Shown: piece by piece, positions 26,252 through 46,809 of the stretch
Layout: each line of letters begins with the position of its first letter
Position numbering within the stretch: position 1 is the stretch's first letter
Assembly: GCA_959020415.1 (NCBI GenBank)
Contig: CAUERX010000004.1
Coordinates: 62-64,061, forward strand
DNA: 64,000 nt
Source: an uncultured bacterium
GTDB taxonomy: Bacteria; Bacillota_I; Bacilli_A; RF39; UBA660
Direction of reading: 5' to 3'
Position numbers and translations under genes: made by a program
Notes under the pieces: generated by a model
What the model was told of the DNA's origin: nothing
The model's database searches: none
What the model saw: only the letters and a program-made list of their open reading frames with translations

Positions 26252-26281
26252 AAAGCTTGTGTTTATTACACAAGCTTTTTA
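26251..26281. terminator. Bidirectional terminator
   Basis: AAAAAGCTTGTG-tttatta-CACAAGCTTTTT. Shared by the small plus-strand ORF and the convergent SGNH gene. Confidence 0.75.
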
Positions 26282-27175
26282 ATATTCAAGACAATCATTT
26301 GAAATATAATCTATAACATTTTGATTTGTCTTGTTTGTATAATGAATGCCATCCACTGTTCTAAAATAAATTTCATGATACGAATCACAGTATTTAATAT
26401 TTTTTAATTTATTTGTCTTTACATTATAATCTAATCGCCTATTAAAATACTCGACCATTTCGGTAGTACGAACGTTATACGGTTGACTAATATTAAGTTT
26501 TTTATCGTTAATTGGATTAATAGATAGCAAATAGAACTGTACGTCAGGATATTGTCTTGATAATTTATTATATTCTTCTAAATACCAATTTATTTCTTTA
26601 TCAACATTTTTAGAATATTGAATATCATTAACTCCCATATTAATCACTACATGATATTTATATTCATTGTTTTTAGAGTCTAATTTTTTTAACAATTTGG
26701 GCAATGCTTCTTTATTAAACCAATCTTTCCCCGCACCAATTTGAGCTATAAAACTAAAATTTACTGGAATATTTATTTCATCTTTAGATTTTTCAATCAG
26801 TTGCATCCTAGAATCACCCACAATTATTACCTTATTTTTGGTTATATCTTTTAATTTAATATCTTCACTGACTTCATATTTTCTATTTTGAAGTTGTAGA
26901 TACTCAGGTATACTGCATTGACAACCTTCATATTTTTTATCATTTATAATCGTAAAAAATATGAACACTACGAAAATCAGAAACACAAATGAAGATAAAA
27001 AAACTAAATACTTTTTAATTCCTACATAAATATTATTTAATTCATTAGTTGTTTTTTTCTGAATTACATAGGTCAAAATAAGACACAAAAAAATCACAAA
27101 GTAGCAAAAAATATCTATATACTTTGTATGACTAATAAGAAATAAAAAGTTTTCATCACAAACCCTCAATAACAT
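26279..27175 (-). CDS. Membrane-anchored SGNH/GDSL hydrolase
   Basis: Two N-terminal TM. Block I VIIVGDSRM, block III NMGVNDI, block V DGIHY. Confidence 0.65.
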   Translation of the reverse strand: MLLRVCDENFLFLISHTKYIDIFCYFVIFLCLILTYVIQKKTTNELNNIYVGIKKYLVFLSSFVFLIFVVFIFFTIINDKKYEGCQCSIPEYLQLQNRKYEVSEDIKLKDITKNKVIIVGDSRMQLIEKSKDEINIPVNFSFIAQIGAGKDWFNKEALPKLLKKLDSKNNEYKYHVVINMGVNDIQYSKNVDKEINWYLEEYNKLSRQYPDVQFYLLSINPINDKKLNISQPYNVRTTEMVEYFNRRLDYNVKTNKLKNIKYCDSYHEIYFRTVDGIHYTNKTNQNVIDYISNDCLEY

Positions 27176-27254
27176 ATCTTTTAATCACCGCCTAATATAT
27201 TATCACATTTTAGTAAAAATTCCAAATAAAAACATGTTTAAGTAAAACATATTT

Positions 27255-28196
27255 TTATTTACTGCCTCGCTTATCCTTCTCTGTCTCTTGAATAATATAA
27301 AGCGGTCTTTGTTTAACTTCCAGATAAGTTTTTGCTAAATACTGTCCAATAATTCCAGTACACAGCAATTGACTACCTCCAATTAAAAACATTATACAAG
27401 CCATGCTGGGCCATCCACTAGTTGGATCACCTAAAATTAAAGTTTTTACAATAATAAGAATAATAATTAAAAACGCGATGATACAAAATAAAATACCCAT
27501 TACTGAAGCAATTGCTAATGGAACTGTGGAAAATGCCACTATGCTCTCGAGAGAATATAAAAACAATTTAAAAAACGACCATTTTGTTGTTCCTGCAGCT
27601 CTTTCTATATTTTCATATTCAAGCCATTTTGTACGATATCCTACCCATGAAAATATTCCTTTGGAAAAACGATTATACTCTGTTAACTCTAAAACAGAAT
27701 TAACCATTTGTCGTGACATAAGCCTAAAGTCACGAGCTCCATCAACAATTTCTGTTTTTGAAATTTTATTAATAATTTTATAATAAGTTCTAGCAAAAAA
27801 ACTACGAATGACCGGTTCCCCTTTTCTGGAAACCCTTCTAGTTGCTACACTATCATAATCACCTGTTTGCAAGATTTCATACATTTCCTTTAATAATGAT
27901 GGAGGATCTTGTAAATCAGCATCCATAATAGCCACATAGTCACCAGTGGCCTCTTTTAATCCAGCATACATCGCTGACTCTTTACCAAAATTACGTGAAA
28001 AAGAAATGTAACGAACATTCTTATTGCTTGATAATTCCCTCATTAAATCTAATGTGTGGTCAACACTACCATCATTAACAAAAATTATTTCAAAAGAAAC
28101 TTTTGGCATAGTTTTTTCAACTTTTGATACTTCCTTGTAAAATAATTTAATAACCTCTTCTTCATTATAACAAGGAACCACTAATGAAATTTTCAT
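27255..28196 (-). CDS. GtrB/DPM1-like GT2 polyprenyl-phosphate hexosyltransferase
   Basis: ISLVVPCYNEEE, FVNDGSVDHT, MDADLQDPP, plus two C-terminal TM helices. Start taken at MKISL (28196). Confidence 0.75.
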   Translation of the reverse strand: MKISLVVPCYNEEEVIKLFYKEVSKVEKTMPKVSFEIIFVNDGSVDHTLDLMRELSSNKNVRYISFSRNFGKESAMYAGLKEATGDYVAIMDADLQDPPSLLKEMYEILQTGDYDSVATRRVSRKGEPVIRSFFARTYYKIINKISKTEIVDGARDFRLMSRQMVNSVLELTEYNRFSKGIFSWVGYRTKWLEYENIERAAGTTKWSFFKLFLYSLESIVAFSTVPLAIASVMGILFCIIAFLIIILIIVKTLILGDPTSGWPSMACIMFLIGGSQLLCTGIIGQYLAKTYLEVKQRPLYIIQETEKDKRGSK

Positions 28197-28286
28197 AAAA
28201 ACACCTCTCAAAACTAACACTAGTATAACATTTTAATACTTTAGGTACAAGACAAACTAGAAAAAAGCTATATTAAAATAACTTTT

Positions 28287-30818
28287 TTATTCAAAAATAT
28301 TATATCCCAAATCCATATCAACCTTAGTAAAAATACCATTAATGTTTCCGTCTGAAGCAAACTGCCAATACTTATATGGGGTTAGATTATAAGTAGGACG
28401 TGTATTTATCGCTTGCGCAAATGTATTCACCCCGTTAGGCCACTCCGCTAACCATATTTCATATTTTTTAGATAAAGCCACAGAGTCTAATTTATCAGTA
28501 AGCCACATCTTGTTAGCATAGATCCCACAACTATATCCGTTATTTTCAATCGTTGAACAAAATTTATCTGCTACTAAAGTCAGTTTTTCTTTACCCACAT
28601 TAGCCACGCTCTTATCTTCAATATCAAGAAAAACTTTCGTTCCTAAATTAGGATGATAATTATTAGCTTTAATTAAATTAATAAGTCTAAGCATATGTTT
28701 AGCTTCTGATACTGCACCAGTACCACTAGCATTGTCAATATCACCAGCATAAGAATAAAGATAAAGTCCGTATGGAATATTATATTTTTCACAAGCTGCT
28801 ACATTAGTGGCAAACATCAAATCATCTTGATAGCTCCAATCACCCCCATAGCCAGCTCTTATTATTACAAAGCCCAAATCACTTTTAGCGATTTTTTCCC
28901 AGTCAATATTACCTTGGTGATAGGAAACATCGATACCAGTATATACTTTGTTATTTGTATTTTTTGAAAGCTTAAATTTTTGACCATTGCCACCGTTAGA
29001 ATTAGCAACTTGAATATTTGCGCCACTAACTAATTTACCATTAGCAACGTCTAAGGTCAGACCATTTACTTTAGAAACCAAAGAAACATTACCATCTCCA
29101 AGATCTTTAATCATCCACTGCTGACTAGCGCTATTATTAGATCTATACATTTGAACATTTGTCCCACTAATCATTCCACCACTAGCAACATCTAAAACAA
29201 GATCAGGATTAATTGCACTGGCAATTGAATAAAAACCATTATTCAAATATTTTAAATACCATATTTGTGCATTAGAATTATTTGATTTATAAAGTTGAAC
29301 ATTTACTCCATTATATTTAGCACCCGATGAAACATCAAGAACCATTGAAGTATTAATTGTCGAAGAAATTGTATAATAACCATCCTCATAAGAACGACCT
29401 TGCTCATTTTTTACCGCAGGTGTAAAAGTAAATTTCTGAGCATTAGTCCCATTACTAGAATATAATTGAATATTAGTCCCTTCGGATGTGTGACCACTTT
29501 TAACATCAACATGACGACCATCTAAAGCTGTGATAATAGAATACTGATTACCACCTAGATATTTTATTATCCATTTCTGAGCTTTCGAGCCATTTGACGC
29601 ATAAAGCTGAACATTAGCACCATCATATGTTTTAGCCCCTGGTACATCTATAGCTTTACTATCATCCAAAGCAGTTTGTATAGTATAATAACCACTTCCA
29701 ATATATTTTATCCACCATTTTTGTGAATTTAAATTAGCATTTTTTTCTAATTGTACATTTGCATTATTTACCGAAATATCTTTATCTAAACCAACAACCA
29801 TGTTTGAATCTAAAACACTATTAATTGTATATAAACCATCGCTCAACATATTAAATTCTACTTTATTAAATTTAAATTTTTGGGCATTAGTCCCGTTAGC
29901 ATGATATAATTGAACATTCGTACCATTAGAGTCTTTTGCCCCACTTATATCTAAAAATAGATTATCCAACTTGGATACGATATTATAATAACCATTACCT
30001 AAATCCCTTAATATCCATTTTTGAGCGTCAGTTCCATTGTTTTGATATAACTGTACATTTGCATTATTCATAGCTTTTGCGCCTGAAACATCAAGAGATT
30101 TTCCAGGATCCAAATGACTGGTTATTGAATAATAACCATTATTCAAATATTTAACATCCCAAATTTGTGCCCAACTATCGTTAGAACTATATAATTGCAC
30201 ATTAGTACTATTTGCAGTTCTCCCACTCGTTAAATCTAACACAGAATTATTATTCAAAGCTGTAGATATAATATAAGAACCATCTGCTAATGATTGTTTA
30301 GAATCAACTATCGGAATAAATTTAAATTTCTGAGCATTAGTCCCATTACCTTGATACATCTGAAGATTGACTCCATTATAATTTTTAGCACTATCTACAT
30401 CTAAATATAAATTATTACAATTTGAAATTACATAATAATATCCATTTCCCGCATACCTAACAAGCCATTTTTGAGCACTAGTATTATTATAACTATAAAT
30501 TTGAACATTTGTTTTATTAACTTTCCCAGCACTTTTAACATCTAAAACAGCATAAGATGCCGCCGAACTAGAAATAACATAATAATCATTGCCAAGATGT
30601 TTTACATTCCATCTTTGCGTCTTTAAATTATTATCATTTTCTAAATTAACATTAGAAGGTTTAGTAAAATCTCCACCTTCAATAGTCATTACCATATTAT
30701 CAGATACCGCACTTTTAATTTTATATTCGCCATCTTCCAGTGCGGGAGCAGCATCAACACTGCCCATACAAATAAAAAACATACATAAAAAGGGCAATAA
30801 ACAAATTAATTTCTTCAT
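28287..30818 (-). CDS. Secreted GH25 muramidase with four ricin-type beta-trefoil lectin domains
   Basis: Signal peptide. 12 subrepeats of about 45 aa, each ending in a Q-x-W/F motif (QRW, QKW, QKF, QIW...). C-terminal GIDVSYHQGNIDWEKI...GFVIIRAGYG GH25 domain. Confidence 0.8.
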   Translation of the reverse strand: MKKLICLLPFLCMFFICMGSVDAAPALEDGEYKIKSAVSDNMVMTIEGGDFTKPSNVNLENDNNLKTQRWNVKHLGNDYYVISSSAASYAVLDVKSAGKVNKTNVQIYSYNNTSAQKWLVRYAGNGYYYVISNCNNLYLDVDSAKNYNGVNLQMYQGNGTNAQKFKFIPIVDSKQSLADGSYIISTALNNNSVLDLTSGRTANSTNVQLYSSNDSWAQIWDVKYLNNGYYSITSHLDPGKSLDVSGAKAMNNANVQLYQNNGTDAQKWILRDLGNGYYNIVSKLDNLFLDISGAKDSNGTNVQLYHANGTNAQKFKFNKVEFNMLSDGLYTINSVLDSNMVVGLDKDISVNNANVQLEKNANLNSQKWWIKYIGSGYYTIQTALDDSKAIDVPGAKTYDGANVQLYASNGSKAQKWIIKYLGGNQYSIITALDGRHVDVKSGHTSEGTNIQLYSSNGTNAQKFTFTPAVKNEQGRSYEDGYYTISSTINTSMVLDVSSGAKYNGVNVQLYKSNNSNAQIWYLKYLNNGFYSIASAINPDLVLDVASGGMISGTNVQMYRSNNSASQQWMIKDLGDGNVSLVSKVNGLTLDVANGKLVSGANIQVANSNGGNGQKFKLSKNTNNKVYTGIDVSYHQGNIDWEKIAKSDLGFVIIRAGYGGDWSYQDDLMFATNVAACEKYNIPYGLYLYSYAGDIDNASGTGAVSEAKHMLRLINLIKANNYHPNLGTKVFLDIEDKSVANVGKEKLTLVADKFCSTIENNGYSCGIYANKMWLTDKLDSVALSKKYEIWLAEWPNGVNTFAQAINTRPTYNLTPYKYWQFASDGNINGIFTKVDMDLGYNIFE
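28975..30750 (-). repeat. Coding tandem repeat: 12 ricin (QxW) subrepeats forming 4 beta-trefoils
   Basis: Recurring N(V/I)QLY-x-(S/N)NG(T/S)-x-AQKW/F blocks in the translated ORF. Confidence 0.75.
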
Positions 30819-30827
30819 TTTTTTCTC

Positions 30828-32495
30828 CTATCTCTTAGAATAAAATACAAAATTCCCATATAACGGAATCATATCATCAGATTTTTCAGAAACGATTTTA
30901 TAATCAATATCCTTATCTCTCAAATTAGCCAGCAAGCCAGTAGAACGCTCATACGCTATATATACATCTATTTTCTCGCCTCGAACCTTATTTAACTCCA
31001 TTCTAGAATAACCGCTTGATTTTAAATCATTATAACAAAAGCTAGAAAAACAAAGAACGGCATTCCTAAATACAATAAACGAAAAACATAATAAAACAAG
31101 TTTATAAAATATTTTATCCTTTGAAGCAAGTAAAATCATAGCAATTATAATAAATAAATATAATTGCGGCGCATATCTAGCCCACCAACTATCTGACAAG
31201 AAAAACATTAATAATACAGTAATAATTATTGGAATAACATAAAACCACGCATTTTTATTTTTTGTATAAATATCGTATCCAATCATATATATTATGACAA
31301 TTAATGAAATTATAAATATACCACTAAATAAAACTCCATATCCACCTATTCTCGTATCATAGCCAATGTTTTTTACTTCATTATAACTATATTCGAAAGG
31401 AGTTTTAAGCTTAGGCTCTCCTCCATTATATGCTCCAATATTTTCGCTCCAAGAAAATATTGAATAAAAATTTTTTTCAATAGGACTTTTATCCGCAAAA
31501 GATTTTGGCTGTAAATAAGTAATAATATCTACCTTATCTTTACCCATTAGTGGGTAAAGTGGATTACCATTAGTAACTGTATTTTTAATATAAGAATTGC
31601 TGCCTACCAGCCCAATAGATACTATTGCTACAATAACAAAAAATATTGTATTCTTTTTTAAATTGTCATATTCTTTATTTTTAATTTTAAAAATAATATA
31701 ATAAATAAAATATCCTAAGCAAAACAAGCCACTATAAGCAAGTCCTGTAAATTTCACATTAACTATCAAAATTATTAAAGAAGTTAAAATGCTTTTAATC
31801 TTCCAATCATCATCTTTTCTTATAAACAAATACATAAACAAAATAATTAAATATAAAAGCAAACCTAAGAAGCCGTCAACATAATAAGAAAAGACCTGTG
31901 ACATTGTAATTGGATTAATAGATACCAATAATCCAACAATAATATTCAAAATTTTCTTATTAAGCAAAAGGTGAAGAATGTATGAAAAAATTGTAAAAGC
32001 AATATAAATTAATAATAAATTATAAAATTTACCAGTCTCAATATCGCCAGTAATTTTATATATATCGCTTGCAAGAATCCAGGTTGTTTTTGGATAATGT
32101 TCAGCCCACAATTGATGTTTATCAGTTAAATCATGAGCTTCGGCAAAGTCTTTGTAATCATCATATATTGGGTTCCAACCAGTAGTCAAAGCCGCTACAG
32201 TTTCTTTATGATACGAATTCCCATCATCAGATTGATCATATACATGACCAGAAGCTAAAATCGAAACAATTAAAACAACTATTGATATAAAAAACGTCAA
32301 AATAAGACTTTTTATATTTTTTTCAAAAATAAAATAAAAAATTACACCACTAATAATACAACTAAGTGGTAGATGAAAACAAGAAACAGGTATATTAAAT
32401 AACCACAAAAGCGACGTTAATAAAACCAAAACTCCTAAAGTAATTATAAGATAAACACCACTATTGTACAAAGTTTTCATTACATTTTTATACAT
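30828..32495 (-). CDS. GT-C-like polytopic membrane protein, paralogue A
   Basis: About 12 TM. Acidic first outer loop HVYDQSDDGNSYHK. Shares blocks with ORF 50120..51826 (WAEHYPKTTW, NPLYPLMGKDKVDIITYLQPKSF, SPIEKNFYSIFS, DTRIGGYG, SWWARYAPQ). Confidence 0.55.
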   Translation of the reverse strand: MYKNVMKTLYNSGVYLIITLGVLVLLTSLLWLFNIPVSCFHLPLSCIISGVIFYFIFEKNIKSLILTFFISIVVLIVSILASGHVYDQSDDGNSYHKETVAALTTGWNPIYDDYKDFAEAHDLTDKHQLWAEHYPKTTWILASDIYKITGDIETGKFYNLLLIYIAFTIFSYILHLLLNKKILNIIVGLLVSINPITMSQVFSYYVDGFLGLLLYLIILFMYLFIRKDDDWKIKSILTSLIILIVNVKFTGLAYSGLFCLGYFIYYIIFKIKNKEYDNLKKNTIFFVIVAIVSIGLVGSNSYIKNTVTNGNPLYPLMGKDKVDIITYLQPKSFADKSPIEKNFYSIFSWSENIGAYNGGEPKLKTPFEYSYNEVKNIGYDTRIGGYGVLFSGIFIISLIVIIYMIGYDIYTKNKNAWFYVIPIIITVLLMFFLSDSWWARYAPQLYLFIIIAMILLASKDKIFYKLVLLCFSFIVFRNAVLCFSSFCYNDLKSSGYSRMELNKVRGEKIDVYIAYERSTGLLANLRDKDIDYKIVSEKSDDMIPLYGNFVFYSKR

Positions 32496-32513
32496 AAACT
32501 ATTGTCCCCTATT

Positions 32514-33362
32514 CTATAGAAAATAAATAAGTGTCATTAATATTATAGCATATCCTAATATTAATGCCAATAAAGTTTTATCATTATAAACAACCTCAAT
32601 AGGGTCGCCATCTCCACCTATTTCAACATCCATACTGTACTTCATTAAAATAATAATAATCAACGGCACAGTCCAGACAAGTAAAGGTAAAATTGTATAA
32701 GACATAGTCCAAAGCGAATAAAAAACTATTCCGATTGCTAAACACATATACATATTTTTATCTAAAAAATCTTTTGAATAATATTTTAAAACTTCCCTGG
32801 TTTCATTATTAGTCATATTAATTTCATTACGTCTCTTCCCTAAAGAAAAGTAAAAAGCAAAAGACACAACAGTTAAATAAAGCCAATTAGAAACTTCAAC
32901 ATCAATTACTGAGCCACCAAATAATACTCTTATCAAAAATCCAGCTGTTAAAATAGAAATATCAATAATCGGAATATTCTTAAGGCCTAAACTATATAAA
33001 ACATTAATAATTATATATATCAAAATATATATTAAATTATAAATTTCACATCCAGAAAAATAGAAGAATAAAATAGACAAAATTCCTAAAACAACGATTA
33101 CAAAATAAGCATTCCTAATCGAAATCCGCCCAGCGGCAAGTGGCCTATTTTTCTTTGTCGGATGTTTTTGATCTTTTTCTACATCTCTTATATCATTTAT
33201 TACATAAATGATACTAGCCGCAAAGCAAAAAGAACAAAACGCGAAAAATGCTTTAAAAAATAATTCATTATCAAAAAAATTACAACTAAAAACTAATGGT
33301 AAAAATATAAGCAAATTCTTCAAATAATGTTTTACCCTAATTAACTTAAAATACTCTCTCAT
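32514..33362 (-). CDS. UbiA-family prenyl-phosphate phosphoribosyltransferase-like enzyme (DPPR synthase type)
   Basis: 8-9 TM. First Asp-rich motif NDIRDVEKD (NDxxDxxxD) followed by KKNRPLAAG. About 280 aa. AGGAG RBS before the ATG at 33362. Confidence 0.6.
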   Translation of the reverse strand: MREYFKLIRVKHYLKNLLIFLPLVFSCNFFDNELFFKAFFAFCSFCFAASIIYVINDIRDVEKDQKHPTKKNRPLAAGRISIRNAYFVIVVLGILSILFFYFSGCEIYNLIYILIYIIINVLYSLGLKNIPIIDISILTAGFLIRVLFGGSVIDVEVSNWLYLTVVSFAFYFSLGKRRNEINMTNNETREVLKYYSKDFLDKNMYMCLAIGIVFYSLWTMSYTILPLLVWTVPLIIIILMKYSMDVEIGGDGDPIEVVYNDKTLLALILGYAIILMTLIYFL

Positions 33363-33377
33363 ACACACACTCCTATT

Positions 33378-34892
33378 TTATTTCAAAATATACTTAAAAA
33401 TAATATTTTCCTCATCATACTTTGTAGAAAAATTTGATGCAAAAAGTCTCGCCCCATTACCTTCTAATTCACCATAAGTTTTCCAAGCATCACTTCGATT
33501 TTTATTGATATCATAATTACCATTGTTAAAAGTATACTGTATAGACCTATTAATTTCGTGAATCCCTGTTACCGATGACAAAAGAAGATAAACAACAATA
33601 AGATAACAAGACATTTTTTTAATATCAAAATTATTTAGTCTTTCAATTACAAATATTGCTAAAACCATCAACGCTGGCAACGATACTCGATTTACAAAAT
33701 CACTACCACCGCCAATATAAAAAAATGGAATAATAGATAATATTAGTAATAAACCAATTATATGTTTATAATTTTTCTTATTGATAATTAAAAAAGCAAT
33801 AATTCCAAATTCTAATAGCCAGAATAAAATATATTTTCTTAAAATATCGCCAAATACACCATATTTTGAAAATATAAGTCCTTTAGGCTGACCACTTGGA
33901 TTTATTAAAAAGAATAAAGCCACAAATAAAACTACAATCAACACCAGTAAATTCTGTTTTGAAAATAATTCCTTGAAATTGTCAAACACCTTAGTCTTTA
34001 AATTTTCACCATTAAAATTATAAAATCCAAAAACAAGAAAAACTAATAATATTAAAAATAGTCCAACCGCTGGAAAAGGCGCAAACAATAAAATAAACAA
34101 CATATATATTCCAACATTAGCAAAACCTTTTTCATTTAAAAGCATGGAGACAATAATCCAAGTAGATACTCCTTGATTAAAAACCCAAAACAATTGAGTT
34201 ATAGTAGAAGAGGTACAAAAATATTTAGACCATGTATCAATATGTGTAATAAAATCAAGTTTAGTTGAATCAGTTAAAAATTGTCCGATTACATCTAAAC
34301 CACTAAAAGCCATGAAAATAAATAAGTAGTTAATTCTAATTTTAGAAAATAAACGGCATAAAAAGTAATAAAATATAATAAGGCCAACTAATTGATATAT
34401 AAACAAAAATAAATTAGCAGCATCAAATCCAAAAACTTTACCAACCATAGCTGAAGGTAACCAATATGAAAAATAATAACTTAGATATCCTTCGTCACCG
34501 ATAGTCTCTATCCCAGTTTTATCATCATAATCATATTTAACTGGAAAATCATAATCTATTAAATCATGTAACACTGCATTTCTAGCATTATGATCCCAAT
34601 TTTGGAAAAAATAGCCACCTATACCAGATAAAAGATTAAAACCAATAAGTAACAAAGCAACAATAATCCATTTTTTAAAATTAAAAATTTCTTTATACTG
34701 TTCCTCTGTTTTATAATTAATCTTTTTTAAGAAAATAATTAAAATAATAATTAACAATATACAAAGAGGAATTGATATATATAGTTTATACCAGCCAAGT
34801 AAAAATATAAAAAGAGGTATAGCAAAAAAGGAAAAACCTAAAATATACATTAACCTATCTATTTTCTTATATTTTTCTAAATTCACATCCAT
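33378..34892 (-). CDS. Polytopic membrane protein (putative GT-C glycosyltransferase or polymerase)
   Basis: 504 aa, 12 or more TM. Outer loop NWDHNARNAVLHDLIDYDFPVKYDYDDK. Start overlaps the upstream GT2 stop (TAATG). Confidence 0.45.
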   Translation of the reverse strand: MDVNLEKYKKIDRLMYILGFSFFAIPLFIFLLGWYKLYISIPLCILLIIILIIFLKKINYKTEEQYKEIFNFKKWIIVALLLIGFNLLSGIGGYFFQNWDHNARNAVLHDLIDYDFPVKYDYDDKTGIETIGDEGYLSYYFSYWLPSAMVGKVFGFDAANLFLFIYQLVGLIIFYYFLCRLFSKIRINYLFIFMAFSGLDVIGQFLTDSTKLDFITHIDTWSKYFCTSSTITQLFWVFNQGVSTWIIVSMLLNEKGFANVGIYMLFILLFAPFPAVGLFLILLVFLVFGFYNFNGENLKTKVFDNFKELFSKQNLLVLIVVLFVALFFLINPSGQPKGLIFSKYGVFGDILRKYILFWLLEFGIIAFLIINKKNYKHIIGLLLILSIIPFFYIGGGSDFVNRVSLPALMVLAIFVIERLNNFDIKKMSCYLIVVYLLLSSVTGIHEINRSIQYTFNNGNYDINKNRSDAWKTYGELEGNGARLFASNFSTKYDEENIIFKYILK

Positions 34893-35851
34893 TACCTCTC
34901 TTTATGAAAAAACAAATATAAAACTTTACCCCAAAATTTATTAAATAATAATAAATATAAACCTTTAACATTTCTATAGAAATATCTATTTCTTCTATAT
35001 TTGGGAAAATTAGTATGAACTCTTTGAATAACTAAATTTAAAGCATTTAAATATTCGCTTCTATCAAAATTTATAGCTCGTATTATAAAAGTTGCATACA
35101 AATATCTAACATAACAAAATTCGATTTCTTCCTTATACTGTTCGAAATAATCGTTATCTTTATAGTATTTAATTAAACCATCGAAATTAGAAATATAATC
35201 ATATATTCGTTTATCATAGTTTCTAGATTCAGAATTATCCCTTTGATAATAATAATATTCCTGTTTATCTATATAGCCAATAGTCTCGATTTTTGGTAAA
35301 ACACGATATAAAAACTCTACATCTTCAGCGAAAATTTTCTCTTTAAAAAATATATTGGCAATTTTTTCACGCTTATAAATTTTGTTCCATAAAACAGGGA
35401 ACATTCTAACCATATACCTTTTTTTAGCCAAATCTGAAATAATATCCTCATTTAAATCAATTTTACCATTCCAATTTTTGCTTTCATTAGTATACCAAAA
35501 ATTGCATTCTACAATGTCAAAATTACCAGAACATGCTTTATTATATAAATCGGCATACATACTTTCTAAAATAACATCATCACTGTCAACAAATCCAATA
35601 TAATCACCAACTGCTGCACAAAGGCCTTTATTTCTTGCTGCTGCAGGTCCTCCATTTTCCTGTTTTATCAATTTAATAACCTCAGGATTATTATTCGCAT
35701 ACCCTTTTAATATTGAATATGTATTATCAGTAGACCCATCATCAACTAAAATTATTTCCAGTTCTTTAAGACTCTGATTCAATAACGAAGTAAGAGTCTT
35801 TTCAATATACTTTTCTGCATTATATACAGGTACAACCACACTAACTTTCAT
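34892..35851 (-). CDS. GT2 glycosyltransferase
   Basis: VSVVVPVYNAEKYI, VDDGSTDNT, VDSDD. Start taken at MKVSV (35851). Confidence 0.8.
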   Translation of the reverse strand: MKVSVVVPVYNAEKYIEKTLTSLLNQSLKELEIILVDDGSTDNTYSILKGYANNNPEVIKLIKQENGGPAAARNKGLCAAVGDYIGFVDSDDVILESMYADLYNKACSGNFDIVECNFWYTNESKNWNGKIDLNEDIISDLAKKRYMVRMFPVLWNKIYKREKIANIFFKEKIFAEDVEFLYRVLPKIETIGYIDKQEYYYYQRDNSESRNYDKRIYDYISNFDGLIKYYKDNDYFEQYKEEIEFCYVRYLYATFIIRAINFDRSEYLNALNLVIQRVHTNFPKYRRNRYFYRNVKGLYLLLFNKFWGKVLYLFFHKER

Positions 35852-37307
35852 TTTCGTCTTCCCCATTCTTAGCAAAGCTAAGAACAAAACCTGCAATACA
35901 TCCTAAATATAAAGTAATTATTAACTCATCAATAATGTGCCCACTAAAATAAGAAACACCAAGTGGCAATAAAAGCATCGCCAAAGTAGTCACTGTAAAC
36001 AAATTAAATTTTCTAGTCTTAATAGATTTATAGAATCCATAAATTGCAATCAATATATATGGAAGTAAAAATAAAATTATGCCTACTGCTCCAATAGTAT
36101 AAAAATGCACAACAAAATCTTTCTCTAAATACAATTTAGCATTAATAAAGCGACTATATCCTAAACCAAAAAGCGAACGTGATGCGTTTTCATAAGTATC
36201 CGCTACATCATCAGTAACCAATTGTTGGGAGTTCCTATTTCCAACTCTATCAGTAGGTGACACATCATCTAAAACATATTGCCAAAATTCCTTATGATCT
36301 TCATATGGGTAAATTTCATTAAAATATATTTCATTCATACCAATATACTCAAGCATTTTTTTAGTAGGAACATTATTATCCTTCATAGTTTTTAACTCTT
36401 GAGGTGTTTTTTCATTATGAACACCATTAGAATTTACAATTGGAGCATGCGACATAATAAGCAAGCCAAAAATCATAATTAAAATAACTACTCCGAATTT
36501 CTTAAAATCAAATTTTATATTTTTAATAATAAAAACAAAAAATAAATATAAAATTAACATCATAACAAATATTAAAGCCCATCCATAAGAAGCCACTCTA
36601 GTTCCTAGAATAATCATAGCAACAGCCATTAAAACAGTTATTATAATTCTAGATTTAGTAATTTTATCAAAAATAGAATATATACAAATCGGTAACAATA
36701 TAAAGGTCAGACCACTAATTTGATTTGCCGAATTAAACCAACCTTTCCCTGCTAAATCCTGGGGTGGATATTTATTGTTCAAAAACCAATCAAAAATATT
36801 TCCTTTAATAACTCCACCACCATAAGAAGCTAGTGAAAATACAATAACGTTAGAACCTACAATAATTATAGACACTATTGCACTAACAATTAAAAATAAT
36901 TTTAGAAATTCTTGTTTTTTCAATTTTAAGCTATATGTTATATAAATAATAGCTAAAGGTAATAGCATCCTAATAATATAAAATAATTCTGTTACAACAC
37001 TATAGCTAAATGTCTTATATCCTGTATTATCAATTCCGGAACTAACAAAATGATGAAATACTACATACAAGACAATAATAAGTCCATAAATAATAACATT
37101 TTTCCGATTTTCTCGCTGATTTTTATTAAAAAACAATAATAAAAACAAAAAGGCAATTATTATCATTCTAATAATCGTTGTTGGCGAAAAATGAAAAAAG
37201 TTAATAACTTCATCCGTATATAAAAGGAAACAATCTAAAAACGGTTGAATTATTAAAAATATTAATAAAATTTTCTTTAAAATTTTCTCATCGGTTAATC
37301 TATTCAC
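35841..37307 (-). CDS. O-antigen polymerase/ligase (Wzy_C) family membrane protein
   Basis: 488 aa, about 11 TM, with a large outer loop (res ~285-385) and a SLFGLGYSRF motif. Confidence 0.55.
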   Translation of the reverse strand: MNRLTDEKILKKILLIFLIIQPFLDCFLLYTDEVINFFHFSPTTIIRMIIIAFLFLLLFFNKNQRENRKNVIIYGLIIVLYVVFHHFVSSGIDNTGYKTFSYSVVTELFYIIRMLLPLAIIYITYSLKLKKQEFLKLFLIVSAIVSIIIVGSNVIVFSLASYGGGVIKGNIFDWFLNNKYPPQDLAGKGWFNSANQISGLTFILLPICIYSIFDKITKSRIIITVLMAVAMIILGTRVASYGWALIFVMMLILYLFFVFIIKNIKFDFKKFGVVILIMIFGLLIMSHAPIVNSNGVHNEKTPQELKTMKDNNVPTKKMLEYIGMNEIYFNEIYPYEDHKEFWQYVLDDVSPTDRVGNRNSQQLVTDDVADTYENASRSLFGLGYSRFINAKLYLEKDFVVHFYTIGAVGIILFLLPYILIAIYGFYKSIKTRKFNLFTVTTLAMLLLPLGVSYFSGHIIDELIITLYLGCIAGFVLSFAKNGEDENES

Positions 37308-37308
37308 A

Positions 37309-38469
37309 TTAGTTCTCCTTTAACACTTGTTTTATTTTTACAATTATATTTTCAATATCATATTCATAGTTATCTAAATTCTTTTTTAAATCAACTAGTT
37401 TCTCCGGATGTATAATTAAATTTTTAAGTCCATCAAATAAACCTTCTGCACTATTTTCAACAATGATTCCATTAACATCATTTTTAATTATGCTTTCAGT
37501 TGCAGCAGTTTTAGTTGCCAATGCTGGAACATGCAAAATCATTGATTCCAAAACTACAAGCCCAAACGCTTCGTATTTTGAAGGTAAAACAAGCAAATCC
37601 GAATTTTTAATTTCCTTATAAGGATTATCCATCTTACCCCAAAACTTAACACCTAACTCATATCTTTCATTTAATTCCAAAACATTATTCATATCAGGGC
37701 CATCTCCAATAACATTAATTACTAATTTATTAGAAAGCCCCTCTTTTTTTAATAAAGAAACTACTTCCAAAAACCTAGTATAAGCTTTAACCTGATGAAT
37801 TCGCCCAACTAATACAACATTAATCTTATCTTCAGAATACACTATCTGTGGTTTTTCCTTTGCTTTAGTAATAATTTTATTAGCGTTCACTATATTTGGG
37901 ATAACTGTTATATTATTGACTGTATAAAATTCAGTAAAAGCTTGTTTTACTCCCTCTGACACAGCAACAAAATTATCAAATTTTGGTATTACCTCTTTAA
38001 ATAATTTATTATATTTATTATTTGGATTATTTTCACCATATTCGTAATGAAGCCAATGAATTTTTTTATTGCTATCACCAAAAGCAGTAAATATAGCAGT
38101 AAAGCCATCCTTAAAAGCTAATTCGATATCATAATGTTTAGTTAATGTTTTTTTACGTTCTTTTTTTATTCTTTTTTTAATTAAACCTGTTTTCATTTCA
38201 AAAACTAATAAACACTTACGAAAAATTAAACTAATTTTTTTTGATTTGAAAGCTTCCTTAATAGTAATATCTACACCATCAAAATATTTAGACCCATATA
38301 TAATATTAACTTTATCCTCGAGCTGTTCCAATCTAGTTCCATTATTGTGAAGAACTAAAATATCAGTATTATAATCTGAGAAAATATTAAGTTCTATCAT
38401 ATCTTCAAGCAAAATCGATACCCCACCCATTTTTCTTTCATCAACAACTATTAACAAATTAGGTTTCAC
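37309..38469 (-). CDS. GT4 glycosyltransferase
   Basis: GT-B fold. C-terminal PSKYEAFGLVVLESM (E-x7-E) motif. Confidence 0.8.
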   Translation of the reverse strand: MKPNLLIVVDERKMGGVSILLEDMIELNIFSDYNTDILVLHNNGTRLEQLEDKVNIIYGSKYFDGVDITIKEAFKSKKISLIFRKCLLVFEMKTGLIKKRIKKERKKTLTKHYDIELAFKDGFTAIFTAFGDSNKKIHWLHYEYGENNPNNKYNKLFKEVIPKFDNFVAVSEGVKQAFTEFYTVNNITVIPNIVNANKIITKAKEKPQIVYSEDKINVVLVGRIHQVKAYTRFLEVVSLLKKEGLSNKLVINVIGDGPDMNNVLELNERYELGVKFWGKMDNPYKEIKNSDLLVLPSKYEAFGLVVLESMILHVPALATKTAATESIIKNDVNGIIVENSAEGLFDGLKNLIIHPEKLVDLKKNLDNYEYDIENIIVKIKQVLKEN

Positions 38470-38482
38470 TTAACATCACCGC

Positions 38483-39436
38483 CTAAACATTTAATATTTT
38501 TTTTAACAATTTATATTTGCCTTTATATAATAAATAACAAACAATTTTATATTTCAAAGATTGCTTTTTATAATATTTATTTTTTTGCCAACTAGGGAAA
38601 ATACCCATCATCGTTTTATTAATCTTAACAAGACTATCAGAAGCTTCCGAAAAAGGTAAAAATCTCAAAGAGGCATCGTGAAGTAAATGGGTAATATATA
38701 AATATTCAATCTCATTATGAAAATAATTAAACCTATCATTGGTCTCAAAGATTGAAATTAAGTGATTTAAAGAAGAAAAAATATCTTCCATCTTACCAGA
38801 ATATTTTAGTTGATTCATTAATGAGTTTGTTCTTTGATAATAAATATATAACGGTTTATCAACATAACCAATTTTTTTAGCAAAAAGTCCATATGCTGGA
38901 ACAACAGCAACATCTTCATAAAAATCATTTTCATAAAAATATAAATTATTATCAACAATTAATTTACGTTTAATGAATTTGCCCCAAGGTGCCGGAAAAG
39001 AAAGAATAGACTCTTCAACTAAATCACTCGACAAATTTGGTTTTGCAGAATAATATTTTTTTTCATTGCCTTGCTCATAATAATAATCACAAATGCACAA
39101 ATCAAGCTCCTCTTCTGTCACCTTATCATATAAAATTGTAAACATCTTTTTATCTATATAATCATCGCTATCAACAAAAGTAACATAATCACCACTAGCT
39201 TTTTGCAAAGCAGTATTTCGAGCTTTAGCCGCTCCACCATTAGTTTGATTAATAACAACAACTCTAGAATCTTTTGAAGCATATGAGTTTAATATTTCCA
39301 GAGTATTATCTGTTGAGCCATCGTTAACAACTAAAATTTCATAATCATTAAAAGTTTGGTTCAATATGCTATCTAAAGTTTTTTCGATAAGCGATTCTGC
39401 ATTATATGCAGGAACAATAACAGTAAGTTTTGGCAT
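38483..39436 (-). CDS. GT2 glycosyltransferase
   Basis: LTVIVPAYNAESLI, VNDGSTDNT, VDSDD. Confidence 0.8.
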   Translation of the reverse strand: MPKLTVIVPAYNAESLIEKTLDSILNQTFNDYEILVVNDGSTDNTLEILNSYASKDSRVVVINQTNGGAAKARNTALQKASGDYVTFVDSDDYIDKKMFTILYDKVTEEELDLCICDYYYEQGNEKKYYSAKPNLSSDLVEESILSFPAPWGKFIKRKLIVDNNLYFYENDFYEDVAVVPAYGLFAKKIGYVDKPLYIYYQRTNSLMNQLKYSGKMEDIFSSLNHLISIFETNDRFNYFHNEIEYLYITHLLHDASLRFLPFSEASDSLVKINKTMMGIFPSWQKNKYYKKQSLKYKIVCYLLYKGKYKLLKKILNV

Positions 39437-39447
39437 ATTTTAATTTC

Positions 39448-40452
39448 CTACCTTTCGAAAGAAGATTTTTGTGGTAAAATTTTTTCAAAATGCTCTGCTA
39501 ATTCTTTTTTTGCTTTTTCATAGTCGATACTTGTATCACTATCATTTATACAAATTTGTTCAACTTCTTGATTTTCAATGCATCTAAATAATTCTTCATT
39601 ATGATCAGACAAATTATAAAATCTACCAAATTTTTTATATGATTTTGGTTCGAAATTTCCAGAATAAATTTGCCACAATTGAAATGCGTACTGATTTACA
39701 TCCGTATCGCTTCTAAATTTAGATAAACAAGTTGTATCTAATGTTTCTTTTTCAACTTTCCATAATTCCTCAAATGTACTTTTTAAAAATGGCGCGGCCG
39801 TATGCGAATTATCAAAACCGGCCATATAAGGCCATTTATTTAAAAGCAAAAAACGTAAATTTCTCTTTCCATATTTCAAGTTAAAACATTTGTTTCTTTG
39901 CTTTTTAATCACATTACGTTTATTAAAATGTCTGCAAATAAGCATTTTATCATTAAGCAATATACGTTCAAAATTAGGATCAGTATTTTCATCGCAATAC
40001 GGAATATTATCACGCCAAATATCGCAAGGAAGTCCGTTTTTGAAGAAATATTCAGGATCAATTTTGTCTATTAAAAACATATCATCATTGAAATAAACAA
40101 ACTTGTCACTTAAATTTTTAATTCTAAATAAATTAAGTTCAATTGGATGAGAACTAAATACAGGCAAATATTTAGAAGGTATAAAATCTTCATGTTTTAC
40201 AATATTTAATTTAGGATTTGAAATATCAAGCCATTCAGGTACATGACCCCATGTAACAAAATGAATTTGATTTACCCATGGAGAAAATTTTTCAACTGCC
40301 CTGAACCAATATTTTAAAACACCCATATCACGATATCTGTTAATTGCATTAGTAACATCCTCCTTCTTAGGAGAATACTTATTTTTTTCTTCTAACCAAG
40401 CAGGGTCACTACCATCAACCCATGCTATTACAAAATCAATTTTATCATGCAT
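39448..40452 (-). CDS. Stealth-family hexose-1-phosphate transferase
   Basis: CR1-like IDFVIAWVDGSDPAW, CR2-like RYRDMGVLKYWFRAVEKFSPWVNQIHFVT, CR3-like FVYFNDDMFL. AAGGAAG RBS before the ATG at 40452. Confidence 0.7.
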   Translation of the reverse strand: MHDKIDFVIAWVDGSDPAWLEEKNKYSPKKEDVTNAINRYRDMGVLKYWFRAVEKFSPWVNQIHFVTWGHVPEWLDISNPKLNIVKHEDFIPSKYLPVFSSHPIELNLFRIKNLSDKFVYFNDDMFLIDKIDPEYFFKNGLPCDIWRDNIPYCDENTDPNFERILLNDKMLICRHFNKRNVIKKQRNKCFNLKYGKRNLRFLLLNKWPYMAGFDNSHTAAPFLKSTFEELWKVEKETLDTTCLSKFRSDTDVNQYAFQLWQIYSGNFEPKSYKKFGRFYNLSDHNEELFRCIENQEVEQICINDSDTSIDYEKAKKELAEHFEKILPQKSSFER

Positions 40453-40456
40453 AATA

Positions 40457-41971
40457 TCAACTTCCTTGTATTCCAACGGCTTTATATATCGCCGATGTTA
40501 TCTTATGGTTAATAGTTTTTAGTTCTATATCCTGATCAATATTATAATATGTCTTGAAAACTTTGCTATGGTATTCACCCCAAGGTCCTCTTGTCCAAAT
40601 ATATGAAATAATTTGATCATAAACTTCGACTTGCTTTACATTTTCATTTTGTAGTTGTTTTTCTATATAATCTTCACGATCCTTATTCATCGAAAAAATC
40701 AGGCTAAACATAAATATAAAATAAATAAGTAAAATTACTAAAAATGCATATATTAATTTATTAAATTTTGGGTTAAAACTATCTTTTAAAATTCTAAGCG
40801 AAACAATTAAGAAAATTATTTCCGTAAATATTGCTACCCTTTCACCCCAAACTGGCACCACAAGCATTGAACCTAAAGCACACCCAGCTATTAATACAAG
40901 AAAAACCAAAAAATTTCTTTCTTTTTCATTTTTCACCAAGTAAATAATCGAATAAAAGAATAACCCAACAAAGAACACCCAGTAAAAAATAAAATACCAT
41001 CTATCAACATTGAATGCTCCCCAAAGTTCTACATATTTATTAAAATAACTATTAAAATCAAAAGGTATCATCATATAAATATTTTGAATTACTCCTAAAA
41101 TAGGAATTATCAAAAATAATATAATCTTATACAGTTTTACCTGCTTTAATTTTAAAACATACACTATCGCTAAACTCATCATTATTAAAACTATAATGTT
41201 TCTAGTAATTGCATAGCCTATAAGGTTAGGAATATTATGAAAAATTCTTCCTATTAAACTTAAACTATAAAACTCTGCCTCGGTTGTTGTCCTTGAAGCT
41301 GTTCCGGGTGACAACAACATTATTGCTAATGAAACAATAGAGAATATTATTAAAATCGAAAATTTTACTAGTTCTCGCTTATCGGCTTTTCTATTCATTA
41401 TTAACCATAAAATATTTCCAAAAACAAAAGCTAGTCCAATATTTTCAACAAACATCGGTGTAATTATATTAACTACTAACAAAATAAAATATTCTATCTT
41501 ACTAAACTTAAATTCTTTTTTTTGATATAAGTAGTAAAAATAAACTAAAACAATAACTGCTGGATATAAGTAAGTCACACTTCCAGCCACCCATGTATAT
41601 GTCTGCGAAAAACTAGACGTATTTAATAGTAAAAGCAATATTAATGGAATAAAATATACGACTTTATTTTTTACATTTCCAAGAATTTTGTTGGCAATAT
41701 AAACTACTAAAGTAAGTAAACCAGATGTCGCGATTACAAAAAGAATATGGTGATAAGTCAATATGTAAATAAAAATTCGACTTATAAACCTTCCTTCCCA
41801 AGAAAAATACATCCCTTTAGCTGCCGATAAAACCATATGAAGTCCTTGTTGTCCAACAGGATAATTTCCCCAATCATCACCACTTATTGGCGCCAACGAT
41901 AAAATAATTACAAAAAATGCAAAAGTTAATATATATATATATATATAATTATTTCTAATTTTTTCTTTCAT
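40457..41971 (-). CDS. GT-C-like polytopic membrane protein (SGDDW-loop type, DUF6056-like)
   Basis: 504 aa, about 13 TM. First loop APISGDDWGNY...WEGRFISR. Contains a (TA)9 tract in codons 9-15. Confidence 0.5.
   Translation of the reverse strand: MKEKIRNNYIYIYILTFAFFVIILSLAPISGDDWGNYPVGQQGLHMVLSAAKGMYFSWEGRFISRIFIYILTYHHILFVIATSGLLTLVVYIANKILGNVKNKVVYFIPLILLLLLNTSSFSQTYTWVAGSVTYLYPAVIVLVYFYYLYQKKEFKFSKIEYFILLVVNIITPMFVENIGLAFVFGNILWLIMNRKADKRELVKFSILIIFSIVSLAIMLLSPGTASRTTTEAEFYSLSLIGRIFHNIPNLIGYAITRNIIVLIMMSLAIVYVLKLKQVKLYKIILFLIIPILGVIQNIYMMIPFDFNSYFNKYVELWGAFNVDRWYFIFYWVFFVGLFFYSIIYLVKNEKERNFLVFLVLIAGCALGSMLVVPVWGERVAIFTEIIFLIVSLRILKDSFNPKFNKLIYAFLVILLIYFIFMFSLIFSMNKDREDYIEKQLQNENVKQVEVYDQIISYIWTRGPWGEYHSKVFKTYYNIDQDIELKTINHKITSAIYKAVGIQGS
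41928..41946. repeat. (AT/TA)9 dinucleotide microsatellite inside a coding region
   Basis: atatatatatatatatata at 41928-41946, encoding YIYIYI near the N-terminus of ORF 40457..41971. Confidence 0.95.
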
Positions 41972-41991
41972 GTTTTTCCCTCTCTACTATA

Positions 41992-42471: not shown

Positions 42472-42480
42472 ATTAACCTC

Positions 42481-42966: not shown

Positions 42967-43066
42967 TAGACAACTCCTTATTATACATTACAATTATAAC
43001 GTATTTTTAATATAAAGTATAGCCAAAAAACAAATTATATTTATATATTATATAATAAAACACTTT

Positions 43067-44062: not shown

Positions 44063-44075
44063 AAAACCACCTCTT

Positions 44076-45608: not shown

Positions 45609-45650
45609 TAAAATAGTCACCTCAAGTTTCTACTTTTAACCAATAAAAAC

Positions 45651-45659
45651 ATTATATCA
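45651..45659 (-). promoter_or_regulatory. Extended -10 promoter of the glycan operon
   Basis: Minus strand TGaTATAAT about 40 nt upstream of the wzx start and downstream of the spoIVB terminator. Confidence 0.45.
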
Positions 45660-45702
45660 GAAAAAGAAATTTATGTCACTAACTATATATTAACCGATAA
45701 AC

Positions 45703-45731
45703 AAAAAGAAAAACTAGTTTCCTAGTTTTTC
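45703..45731 (-). terminator. Terminator after spoIVB
   Basis: Minus strand GAAAAACTAG-gaaa-CTAGTTTTTC followed by TTTTT. Overlaps the stop codon. Confidence 0.7.
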
Positions 45732-46717: not shown

Positions 46718-46809
46718 TAAATCATCTCCTATATAAAATGCAGACTACATTATTATTATAGATAATTTTTTTAAAATTAAAGATAGAATAATATACCAAA
46801 AAAGCAAGT

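Follow-up and report, generated by a model that had tools for sequence, protein, structure and literature searches.

In Mycobacterium tuberculosis, the decaprenyl-phospho-arabinose pathway comprises the decaprenyl-phosphate phosphoribosyltransferase (DPPRS) Rv3806c, the PAP2 phosphatase Rv3807c, DprE1/DprE2, Rv3789, and the Emb/Aft GT-C enzymes, and arabinosylation of the pilin of Pseudomonas aeruginosa PA7 involves TfpW, a polyprenyl-phosphate 5-phosphoribosyltransferase (PPPRS), and homologs of DprE1/E2. Gtr-type systems for hexoses are represented by GtrA/GtrB/GtrC of Shigella and Salmonella phages and by CsbB/PgfS-type analogs in Firmicutes. Here we examine a 64-kb stretch of DNA from a Bacilli genome (64,000 nucleotides of contig CAUERX010000004.1; hereafter the window), which has a GC content of approximately 28 per cent and in which the gene of a UbiA-type membrane protein lies between the genes of two large polytopic proteins of 504 and 555 amino acids (aa). 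We consider it likely (probability of roughly 0.7) that this trio is the core of a 'three-component' extracytoplasmic pentofuranose module within a Wzx/Wzy-type wall-polysaccharide operon.

A three-component pathway of this type has been shown biochemically in Citrobacter youngae, where it adds alpha-ribofuranose (alpha-Ribf) to the polymerized O antigen (Kelly et al., PNAS 2024, PMC11127046; for commentary on the topic, see PMC11194591). In C. youngae O1/O2, the components are ORF15, a fusion of a HAD-type phosphoribose phosphatase (PRP) with a PPPRS; ORF14, a small transporter; and ORF12, the GT-C enzyme that founded family GT136 (PMC11127046). ORF15 makes undecaprenyl-phosphate-linked Ribf (Und-P-Ribf) from 5-phosphoribosyl-1-pyrophosphate (PRPP), an SDR epimerase turns the donor into its xylofuranose (Xylf) counterpart, and homologs of DprE1/E2 go with glycans that contain arabinofuranose (Araf) (PMC11127046). 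Gram-positive candidate systems (one Bacillus strain is named) and a phage system were already noted in that study (PMC11127046), and Ribf and Araf, while rare, are on record in Firmicute glycans, for example those of Streptococcus thermophilus 8S and CS6 (PMC12413058). A first-pass annotation of the window, which had described the chemistry as not classically associated with low-GC Gram-positives, thus overstated its novelty, given the pathway shown in Citrobacter and the listed Bacillus candidate. Its genes make the locus most plausibly a Gram-positive representative of the pathway type published in 2024; what is notable about it are two unclassified polytopic partner families, the absence of a phosphatase and a flippase in cis, and a broad occurrence across gut Firmicutes that has so far gone unreported.

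The UbiA-type protein and its polytopic partners

ORF calling recovered three adjoining ORFs on the minus strand, where the first-pass annotation had placed them:

33378..34892, minus strand: 504-aa polytopic protein, orphan family (without matches in Pfam, NCBIfam, or PDB sequences; AlphaFold2 [AF2] model and Foldseek)
32514..33362, minus strand: UbiA-type protein, predicted PPPRS of the Rv3806c type, 283 aa from ATG 33362 (PF01040, NCBIfam, alignment to 8j8j)
30828..32495, minus strand: 555-aa polytopic protein, predicted GT-C-fold glycosyltransferase (AF2 model and Foldseek)

The UbiA ORF stays open to a GTG codon at 33368 (32514..33368; 284 aa from this codon), and ATG 33362 is more probably its start because an AGGAG ribosome-binding site lies upstream of the ATG. 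With the ATG start, 15 nt separate the 504-aa gene from the UbiA gene; the 9 nt reported earlier apply only with the GTG start, whereas the reported gap of 18 nt between the UbiA and 555-aa genes stands.

The UbiA-type protein is very probably a PPPRS that makes a lipid-linked ribose donor, as the first-pass annotation had proposed. It matches Pfam family PF01040 with 78.6 bits (E = 6e-22; cutoff 34.2) and carries both of the motifs described previously, NDIRDVEKD (NDxxDxxxD) and KKNRPLAAG. Among NCBIfam models, those for decaprenyl-phosphate phosphoribosyltransferase score 205.4 (NF008978), 191.5 (NF008977), and 162 bits (a third model), and the model for HAD-UbiA fusions scores 166 bits. Models named for haem O synthase and for 4-hydroxybenzoate, menaquinone, and chlorophyll synthase enzymes score 16–36 bits, and the generic 'prenyltransferase' model NF009523 scores 60.5 bits, which leaves the DPPRS models about 170 bits ahead of the named quinone, haem, and chlorophyll models.

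The protein also aligns over its full length (residues 7–274) with M. tuberculosis Rv3806c (PDB 8j8j; E = 1.3e-36). We compared 14 positions of Rv3806c: ligands of Mg2+, pyrophosphate, ribose, and the 5'-phosphate (PMC10994848), the D74/D81 pair, and the pocket residue K208. Eleven of the 14 are identical (R22, K28, Y70, N73, D74, D77, D81, K87, R90, Y138, and K143), and three are changed (Q135 to N, Y157 to F, and K208 to E, the last near an alignment gap). D74 and D81 of the Asp motif are the residues that were mutated in C. youngae ORF15 (PMC11127046). Two of the 5'-phosphate ligands, K28 and Y70, are kept and the third is changed from Tyr to Phe, a residue that some mycobacteria also have at the Y157 position. 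According to the study that reported the cryo-EM structure of Rv3806c, ordinary UbiA enzymes do not share its phosphoribose-binding sites (PMC10994848).

Neither polytopic partner has a match in Pfam, NCBIfam, or PDB sequences in single-sequence and profile searches. Both have 10–11 or more hydrophobic spans in a crude hydropathy scan, and both are modeled by AF2 as all-helical bundles. The 555-aa protein, which has 416 homologs at E <= 1e-3 in gut metagenomes and metagenome-assembled genomes (MAGs), gave an AF2 model with a mean predicted local distance difference test score (pLDDT) of 95.0 and a predicted TM-score of 0.95 from an alignment of 89 sequences. In a Foldseek search of this model against the PDB, the top 11 matches are all GT-C glycosyltransferases, led by ArnT (5ezm/5f15; E of about 2e-3, probability 1.00, TM-scores of 0.45–0.48) and followed by PglB, DPY19, ALG9, STT3, EmbA/EmbB, and ALG12. 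The protein is thus confidently modeled as a GT-C-fold enzyme and is a likely candidate for an extracytoplasmic ribofuranosyltransferase that uses a lipid-linked donor.

An acidic first loop had been attributed to the 555-aa protein. The acidity is borne out (14 D/E versus 5 K/R in the loop HVYDQSDDGNSYHK), whereas the position is not, as the loop follows the third predicted helix and is the first large loop rather than literally the first one. It contains the invariant residues D87, D91, H96, and K97, with D87 and D91 invariant in 89 homologs. The C-terminus is a small alpha/beta domain of about 50 residues and not a carbohydrate-binding module (CBM) like that of ORF12. Members of the 555 family lie within about 120 nt of a UbiA gene in 10 of 12 loci, some have an N-terminal HAD domain, and the family is related to another UbiA-adjacent family, c3 (hhalign probability of 96.6 per cent).

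The 504-aa protein is probably a second GT-C-like transferase of the same pathway, although its role as a glycosyltransferase is putative. The family has 489 homologs at E <= 1e-3 in gut metagenomes and MAGs, and the AF2 model has a pLDDT of 94.2 (alignment of 90 sequences). The Foldseek matches of this model are weak, with none at E <= 0.001: AftA (8if8) is found with E = 0.13, probability 0.82, and TM-scores of 0.37/0.32, ArnT (5f15) with probability 0.63, and every transporter with a probability of at most 0.12. A Foldseek comparison with viral structures returned nothing informative. Of the two GT-C-like flanking proteins in the first-pass annotation, the 555-aa protein is therefore well matched and the 504-aa protein weakly so, with transporters far lower.

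In the 504 family, an acidic loop after helix 3 contains a conserved QNWDHxxRN motif, and the invariant residues Q97, D100, R104, Y139/Y140, K152, R402, E446, and R449 lie in putatively extracytoplasmic loops. About one-third of the 120 homologs listed for the family have an N-terminal HAD (PF12710) domain. In profile comparisons with hhalign, the probability of a match is 9 per cent against the 555 family, where the aligned stretch overlays the acidic loops of both families (suggestive, not significant); it is below 1 per cent against the DUF6056 protein of the window and a PMT_2-type neighbor from locus L084 and at most 24 per cent against nine other UbiA-adjacent families. The family also occurs in another setting: distant tandem paralogs of 501 and 525 aa are encoded in a Chloroflexi MAG (Anaerolineae; JABFGC010000001.1, L083 6460-9578), where none of UbiA, HAD, or glycan genes lies within 8 kb, so that a 504-family protein need not be accompanied by a PPPRS.

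Related loci in other genomes

We surveyed one genome per GTDB species and found 182 stretches with relatives of the UbiA protein; the counts below refer to the best 80 loci, for each of which flanks of up to ±10 kb were fetched. Almost all of these loci come from gut and rumen Clostridia and Bacilli, with Clostridium puniceum and Solibacillus in addition, and the carriers of the module surveyed include Clostridium, Roseburia, Lachnospiraceae, Oscillospiraceae, Christensenellaceae, and Solibacillus. Large polytopic proteins are frequent neighbors of UbiA: a protein of at least 430 aa with at least eight transmembrane helices is encoded within 200 nt in 52 loci and within 3 kb in 70, and 26 loci have two or more. 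These partners belong to the DUF6080-like, GtrII (PF14264), PMT_2-like, 555, 504, and other families.

A HAD (PF12710) gene stands beside UbiA in 46 of the 80 loci, and GtrA is present in many related loci. Three architectures are seen for the HAD domain: it stands alone (about 188 aa), is joined to GtrA in a fusion of about 325 aa (16 loci, plus a HAD-GtrA protein in L084), or forms the N-terminal domain of a polytopic protein, the last in at least three families (504, 555, and c3). Examples of HAD fusions, either to GtrA or to a polytopic protein, are found at L018 10890-11858, L034 3452-4543, L082 8001-10091, and L009 7720-9981. As predicted from these architectures, the pathway phosphatase is fused to either the flippase or the transferase across the relatives. 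The HAD fusions of the 504 and 555 families also indicate that the N-termini of these proteins are cytoplasmic and tie both families to the phosphoribose pathway. The remaining 34 loci have no HAD gene within the fetched flanks, which for about 26 of them extend more than 4 kb on both sides, and the HAD-less state is therefore common. A locus in a closed 1.54-Mb Bacilli MAG (OZ007038.1; L079) is HAD-less as well.

The 504 family occurs beside both UbiA and HAD in five loci and is rarely the sole large polytopic partner near UbiA (L077 is an apparent exception). The gene sets of these five loci and of one further locus are as follows:

L081: 555-family protein, UbiA, HAD, 504-family protein
L082: 555-family protein, UbiA, fusion of HAD to a 504-family protein
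L090: PMT_2 protein, UbiA, HAD, 504-family protein, 552-aa protein outside the assigned families
L084 and L086: 504-family protein, PMT_2-like protein, UbiA, HAD (fused to GtrA in L084)
L085: UbiA, HAD, 555-family protein, with GtrA nearby

A near-identical version of the locus itself is found on contig URBG01000001.1 of a human-gut bin ('uncultured Tenericutes bacterium UMGS841'), where the UbiA and 555-aa proteins are 100 per cent identical and the 504-aa and DUF6056 proteins 97–98 per cent identical to those of the window. In a tblastn search of a phage collection with the UbiA protein, the only match was a 30 per cent identical homolog at positions 4928-5746 of MT837543.1, an unannotated 6.6-kb 'Bacteriophage sp.' contig from human feces; this fits the phage-borne system of Kelly et al.

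Operon setting and the remaining pathway steps

Pfam and NCBIfam searches confirm that the trio belongs to one minus-strand operon with GT2, GT4, Wzx, and Wzy genes. The operon spans about 21 kb, all on the minus strand, and contains four GT2 genes, one GT4 gene, and one Alg13/14 pair. Its order is GalE, SpoIVB, Wzx-like, GT2, Alg14/Alg13, DUF6056, Stealth, GT2, GT4, O-antigen-ligase/Wzy-like, and GT2, followed by the trio, a lectin-GH25 protein, a PgfS/GtrB-like GT2, and a GDSL esterase. The features that bear on the pathway and on the host are the following:

~26279..47856, minus strand: wall-glycan operon, GalE to GDSL esterase (Pfam and NCBIfam)
27255..28220, minus strand: GtrB/CsbB/PgfS-like GT2, predicted polyprenyl-phosphate hexose synthase (PF00535, 119 bits; NF047588; NF007986)
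35841..37307, minus strand: O-antigen-ligase/Wzy-like polymerase of the backbone glycan (PF13425, 188 bits)
40457..41971, minus strand: DUF6056 polytopic protein, the third large membrane protein of the operon (PF19528, 116.9 bits; weak EpsG match)
44076..45620, minus strand: Wzx-like (MOP-superfamily) flippase, 514 aa (weak PF01943 match, E = 5e-4, under the gathering score; no NCBIfam match)
45722-46717, minus strand: SpoIVB, between GalE and the Wzx-like gene (TIGR02860, 332 bits, above cutoff)
46810..47856, minus strand: GalE (TIGR01179, 447 bits versus a cutoff of 262)
25439-26068, minus strand: SpoIIM, just downstream of the operon (bona fide by model search)

GC skew is negative throughout the operon. 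In a promoter and terminator scan, counts equaled the shuffled expectation and no above-chance terminator fell between the trio genes; sub-operon structure therefore cannot be inferred from the scan. Because the window encodes bona fide SpoIVB and SpoIIM, the host organism is predicted to be a spore-forming member of Bacillota and not a mollicute.

The gene content of the window leaves two steps of the pathway without an obvious enzyme. No HAD or PAP2 phosphatase was found in any real ORF of the 64 kb by Pfam, tblastn, or a HAD hidden Markov model (HMM) run on six-frame ORFs, and the HAD domains of relatives, used as tblastn and HMM queries, matched the window only at E >= 0.04. Likewise, no GtrA/SMR-type flippase was found in the window with the GtrA domains of relatives or stand-alone GtrA (c12) proteins as tblastn queries or with Pfam, and the Wzx-like 514-aa protein is the only candidate translocase of a lipid-linked sugar. 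A weak tblastn match at 59845-59901, considered as a phosphatase or flippase, was rejected, since it lies within a thioredoxin gene. The phosphatase and flippase functions may be encoded elsewhere in the genome. The Citrobacter mutant with a dead PRP domain retained some activity (PMC11127046), which suggests that other phosphatases can substitute.

Epimerases are absent from the window too: there is no FAD_binding_4/ALO-type protein and no DprE1/E2 among its ORFs, and its sole SDR protein is a true GalE (TIGR01179). The first-pass annotation, which had seen neither a DprE1/DprE2-like epimerase nor a phosphatase of the phosphoribosylated lipid in the window, was right on both counts, as none occurs among the real ORFs. 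We also considered GalE (46810..47856) as a pentose epimerase resembling ORF13, which is unlikely, given that it scores 185 bits above the GalE equivalog cutoff and lies 12 kb from the trio. D-ribofuranose is the predicted sugar, as the window lacks both a DprE1/E2 pair and any further SDR epimerase.

The GT2 at 27255..28220 is the predicted source of a second, independent lipid-linked sugar donor in the operon; it scores 320 bits with NF047588 (PgfS), under the cutoff of 500, and 159 bits with the ArnC-like model NF007986. Assigning the DUF6056 protein to it as a GT-C partner is a guess, under which the two proteins (27255-28220 and 40457-41971) would form a possible second three-component system in the operon, again with no GtrA in the window. 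Copies of the DUF6056 protein, 68 per cent identical, are encoded upstream of UbiA in L044 and L079.

Other genes of the operon and its surroundings concern the glycan and the cell surface. A Stealth-family protein (39448-40476, minus strand) has the conserved regions CR1 to CR4 of a hexose-1-phosphate transferase, which suggests a backbone polymer with phosphodiester linkages. Between the 555-aa gene and the PgfS-like GT2 gene lies the gene of an 843-aa secreted protein (28287-30818, minus strand) with about 10 ricin-type beta-trefoil lectin repeats and a C-terminal GH25 muramidase domain; it may be a glycan-targeted autolysin. On the plus strand, at 47968-50028, is the gene of a 686-aa PASTA-repeat protein without a kinase domain, which matches the Stk1/PknB model only in its extracellular half (positions 330-563), and a 661-aa PASTA protein likewise borders the related glycan locus L082 (1-851). 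Farther upstream of the operon are genes for a 1089-aa surface protein with SH3, glucosaminidase, and Ig-like domains (51899-55168, minus strand) and for a weak class-B sortase-like protein (58658-59596, minus strand).

A proposed pathway and its comparison with known systems

We propose that, at the cytoplasmic face of the membrane, the UbiA-type enzyme would move ribose-5-phosphate from PRPP to undecaprenyl phosphate, a step strongly supported by its sequence, and so yield Und-P-beta-D-ribofuranose-5-phosphate. Removal of the 5'-phosphate would then give Und-P-Ribf; in most relatives, this step would fall to the phosphoribose phosphatase of HAD type, which is encoded alongside or as a fusion with GtrA or with GT-C proteins, and here to a phosphatase from elsewhere in the genome or to a general phosphatase. 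Und-P-Ribf would be flipped across the membrane, a step for which the window has no dedicated small flippase, and the 555-aa GT-C protein, probably together with the 504-aa protein, would move Ribf onto the exported wall polysaccharide. The two proteins, the first of which has a well-matched and the second a weakly matched fold, could act sequentially or at two different positions, and the linkage would be alpha-Ribf if the GT-C enzymes invert. The earlier proposal of a lipid-linked pentofuranose attached outside the membrane to the wall polysaccharide is thereby supported, and of the two sugars it had allowed, ribofuranose is favored, since the window has no epimerase.

Several observations weigh against this pathway. 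The UbiA protein falls 1.6 bits short of the curated cutoff of NF008978 (205.4 versus 207), and neither structural nor profile comparisons give the 504-aa protein a significant match (Foldseek E = 0.13 and TM-score of 0.37; hhalign to the 555 family, 9 per cent). The phosphoribose phosphatase and small flippase steps both have no gene in the 64-kb window, and HAD is present in relatives with the same gene set (L081, L082, and L090). The GT2 predicted to synthesize Und-P-hexose could supply the donor for one of the polytopic proteins, and the host organism is uncultured.

Among the alternatives, the one that concerns the 504-aa protein is unlikely, though far from negligible. In it, only the 555-aa protein transfers sugar, and the 504-aa protein is an accessory membrane component, namely, a translocase of Und-P-Ribf or an acceptor-presenting or polymerase-like protein. 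Its weak structural matches to GT-C enzymes (E = 0.13, TM-scores of 0.32–0.37) are compatible with such a role, as are the lack of profile kinship to any other UbiA-adjacent family, the absence of a GtrA/SMR flippase from the window, and the second large polytopic protein that accompanies the 504-family member in most loci checked (L081, L082, L084, L086, L090, L049, and L075). Moreover, since 16 loci have HAD joined to the flippase GtrA, a HAD fusion alone is no sign of a transferase. However, GT-C enzymes are the sole matches of appreciable probability, with transporters at 0.12 or below, and the loops in which the invariant polar and charged residues gather are putatively extracytoplasmic, as in GT-C active sites. 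L084, which carries a HAD-GtrA fusion and a 504-family gene together, further argues that the 504 family is no simple substitute for GtrA. In a further alternative, one or both of the 504-aa and 555-aa proteins use Und-P-hexose made by the PgfS/GtrB-like GT2 in place of the UbiA product, and their adjacency to UbiA is coincidental packing. We regard this as quite improbable: a GtrB/PgfS-type GT2 does lie in the same operon, where three polytopic candidates (the DUF6056, 504-aa, and 555-aa proteins) are available for two donors, but the DUF6056 protein could serve as the partner of the GT2, the 504 and 555 families are both fused to the pathway-specific HAD phosphoribose phosphatase, and they adjoin UbiA in unrelated genomes, some of which have no PgfS-like GT2 match within the fetched flanks.

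The identity of the sugar and of the donor can be questioned in turn. If other parts of the genome encode epimerases (a DprE1/E2-like pair or an SDR like ORF13), the donor could be converted to Araf or Xylf: the window is only 64 kb of the genome, epimerases alone set sugar identity in known systems, and the GT-C enzyme assayed there is donor-promiscuous (PMC11127046). Yet in the candidate Xylf and Araf systems surveyed in that work the epimerase genes belong to the modification system (PMC11127046), and the window has no FAD-oxidase/SDR pair and a true GalE, 12 kb away, as its sole SDR, which makes either sugar improbable. It is hardly credible that chance has placed an ordinary prenyltransferase (aromatic, quinone, or haem) in a glycan operon and that the UbiA protein is such an enzyme; membership in the PF01040 superfamily and the NDxxDxxxD motif are common to prenyltransferases, but the protein scores at most 36 bits on the named models of such enzymes (60.5 on the generic NF009523) versus 205 on the DPPRS model, it keeps the 5'-phosphate ligands K28 and Y70, and its family is found together with HAD, GtrA, and GT-C genes across genomes. 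Finally, because this locus and about 40 per cent of the related Firmicute loci have neither a phosphoribose phosphatase nor a small flippase, the donor might be kept as Und-P-ribofuranose-5-phosphate and be translocated or transferred by, for example, the 504-aa family, in which case the wall would gain anionic ribose-5-phosphate, an undescribed charge modification resembling that of teichoic acids. We view this as a long shot, less likely than a phosphatase encoded elsewhere.

If the proposed Ribf pathway is correct, the wall polysaccharide of a spore-forming Firmicute of the human gut receives ribofuranose from a lipid donor derived from PRPP, through GT-C enzymes that act outside the membrane. 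The survey would then carry a pathway demonstrated only in Gram-negatives over to a large part of the gut microbiota. Several unclassified polytopic families become candidates for new glycosyltransferase families; in a more speculative reading, the 504 and 555 families would be two new CAZy GT-C ribofuranosyltransferase families, widespread in the human gut microbiome. To our knowledge, pentofuranoses are absent from human glycans, and the decorations are therefore likely to matter as antigens and as determinants of phage receptors.

The locus shares with the C. youngae system an Rv3806c-homologous PPPRS encoded beside a GT-C-fold enzyme in a polysaccharide locus, the predicted logic (PRPP to polyprenyl-P-Ribf-5-P to polyprenyl-P-Ribf, flipping, and post-polymerization transfer outside the membrane), and Ribf as the default sugar when there is no epimerase. 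Unlike C. youngae, the host is a predicted Gram-positive spore-former, its PPPRS lacks a fused HAD/PRP domain, and the 64 kb contain neither a HAD gene nor a small transporter with four transmembrane helices. Additionally, there are two polytopic partners instead of one, both from families without a Pfam or NCBIfam model, and neither has a C-terminal CBM comparable to that of ORF12.

Compared with the M. tuberculosis pathway, the first enzyme is a full-length homolog (E = 1e-36) that retains ligands of PRPP, Mg2+, and the 5'-phosphate, and the predicted downstream users are GT-C-fold membrane enzymes, with AftA as the best, although weak, fold match of the 504-aa protein. The window differs in having no DprE1/E2, in line with which no arabinose is predicted, and no PAP2 phosphatase; undecaprenyl presumably takes the place of decaprenyl as the lipid, and the predicted destination of the sugar is a Wzx/Wzy-type wall polysaccharide, which it would decorate, and not an arabinan polymer. 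The system of P. aeruginosa PA7 is likewise a PPPRS and GT-C module outside Actinobacteria, but its acceptor is pilin and its sugar is D-Araf, which needs epimerases, whereas here the module lies in a polysaccharide operon without them.

Gtr-type systems resemble the proposed pathway in their polyprenyl-P-monosaccharide donor, flippase, and polytopic GT-C enzyme acting outside the membrane. Relatives of the locus use a GtrA flippase and sometimes a GtrII-family (PF14264) transferase, and the window, too, carries a GtrB/PgfS-like GT2. The distinction lies in the donor synthase, which has a UbiA fold and is predicted to act on PRPP instead of being a GT2 that acts on a UDP-sugar, and in the extra dephosphorylation step that this requires.

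A complete module is encoded on the exopolysaccharide plasmid pF27D of the dairy bacterium Lactococcus cremoris F.2.7 (NZ_CP068515.2; L087 10596-13715); the module adjoins Wzx and Wzy genes and consists of a 462-aa polytopic protein, a 'decaprenyl-phosphate phosphoribosyltransferase', a HAD-IB phosphatase, and GtrA. HAD and GtrA are present in the Lactococcus module only, and its polytopic partner belongs to the DUF6080-like c1 family (hhalign probability of 100 per cent to c1, but below 2 per cent to the 504 and 555 families). The two loci agree in being Firmicute polysaccharide clusters with Wzx and Wzy, and their PPPRS proteins are 49.6 per cent identical; L. cremoris F.2.7 thus offers a cultivable system for testing the module.

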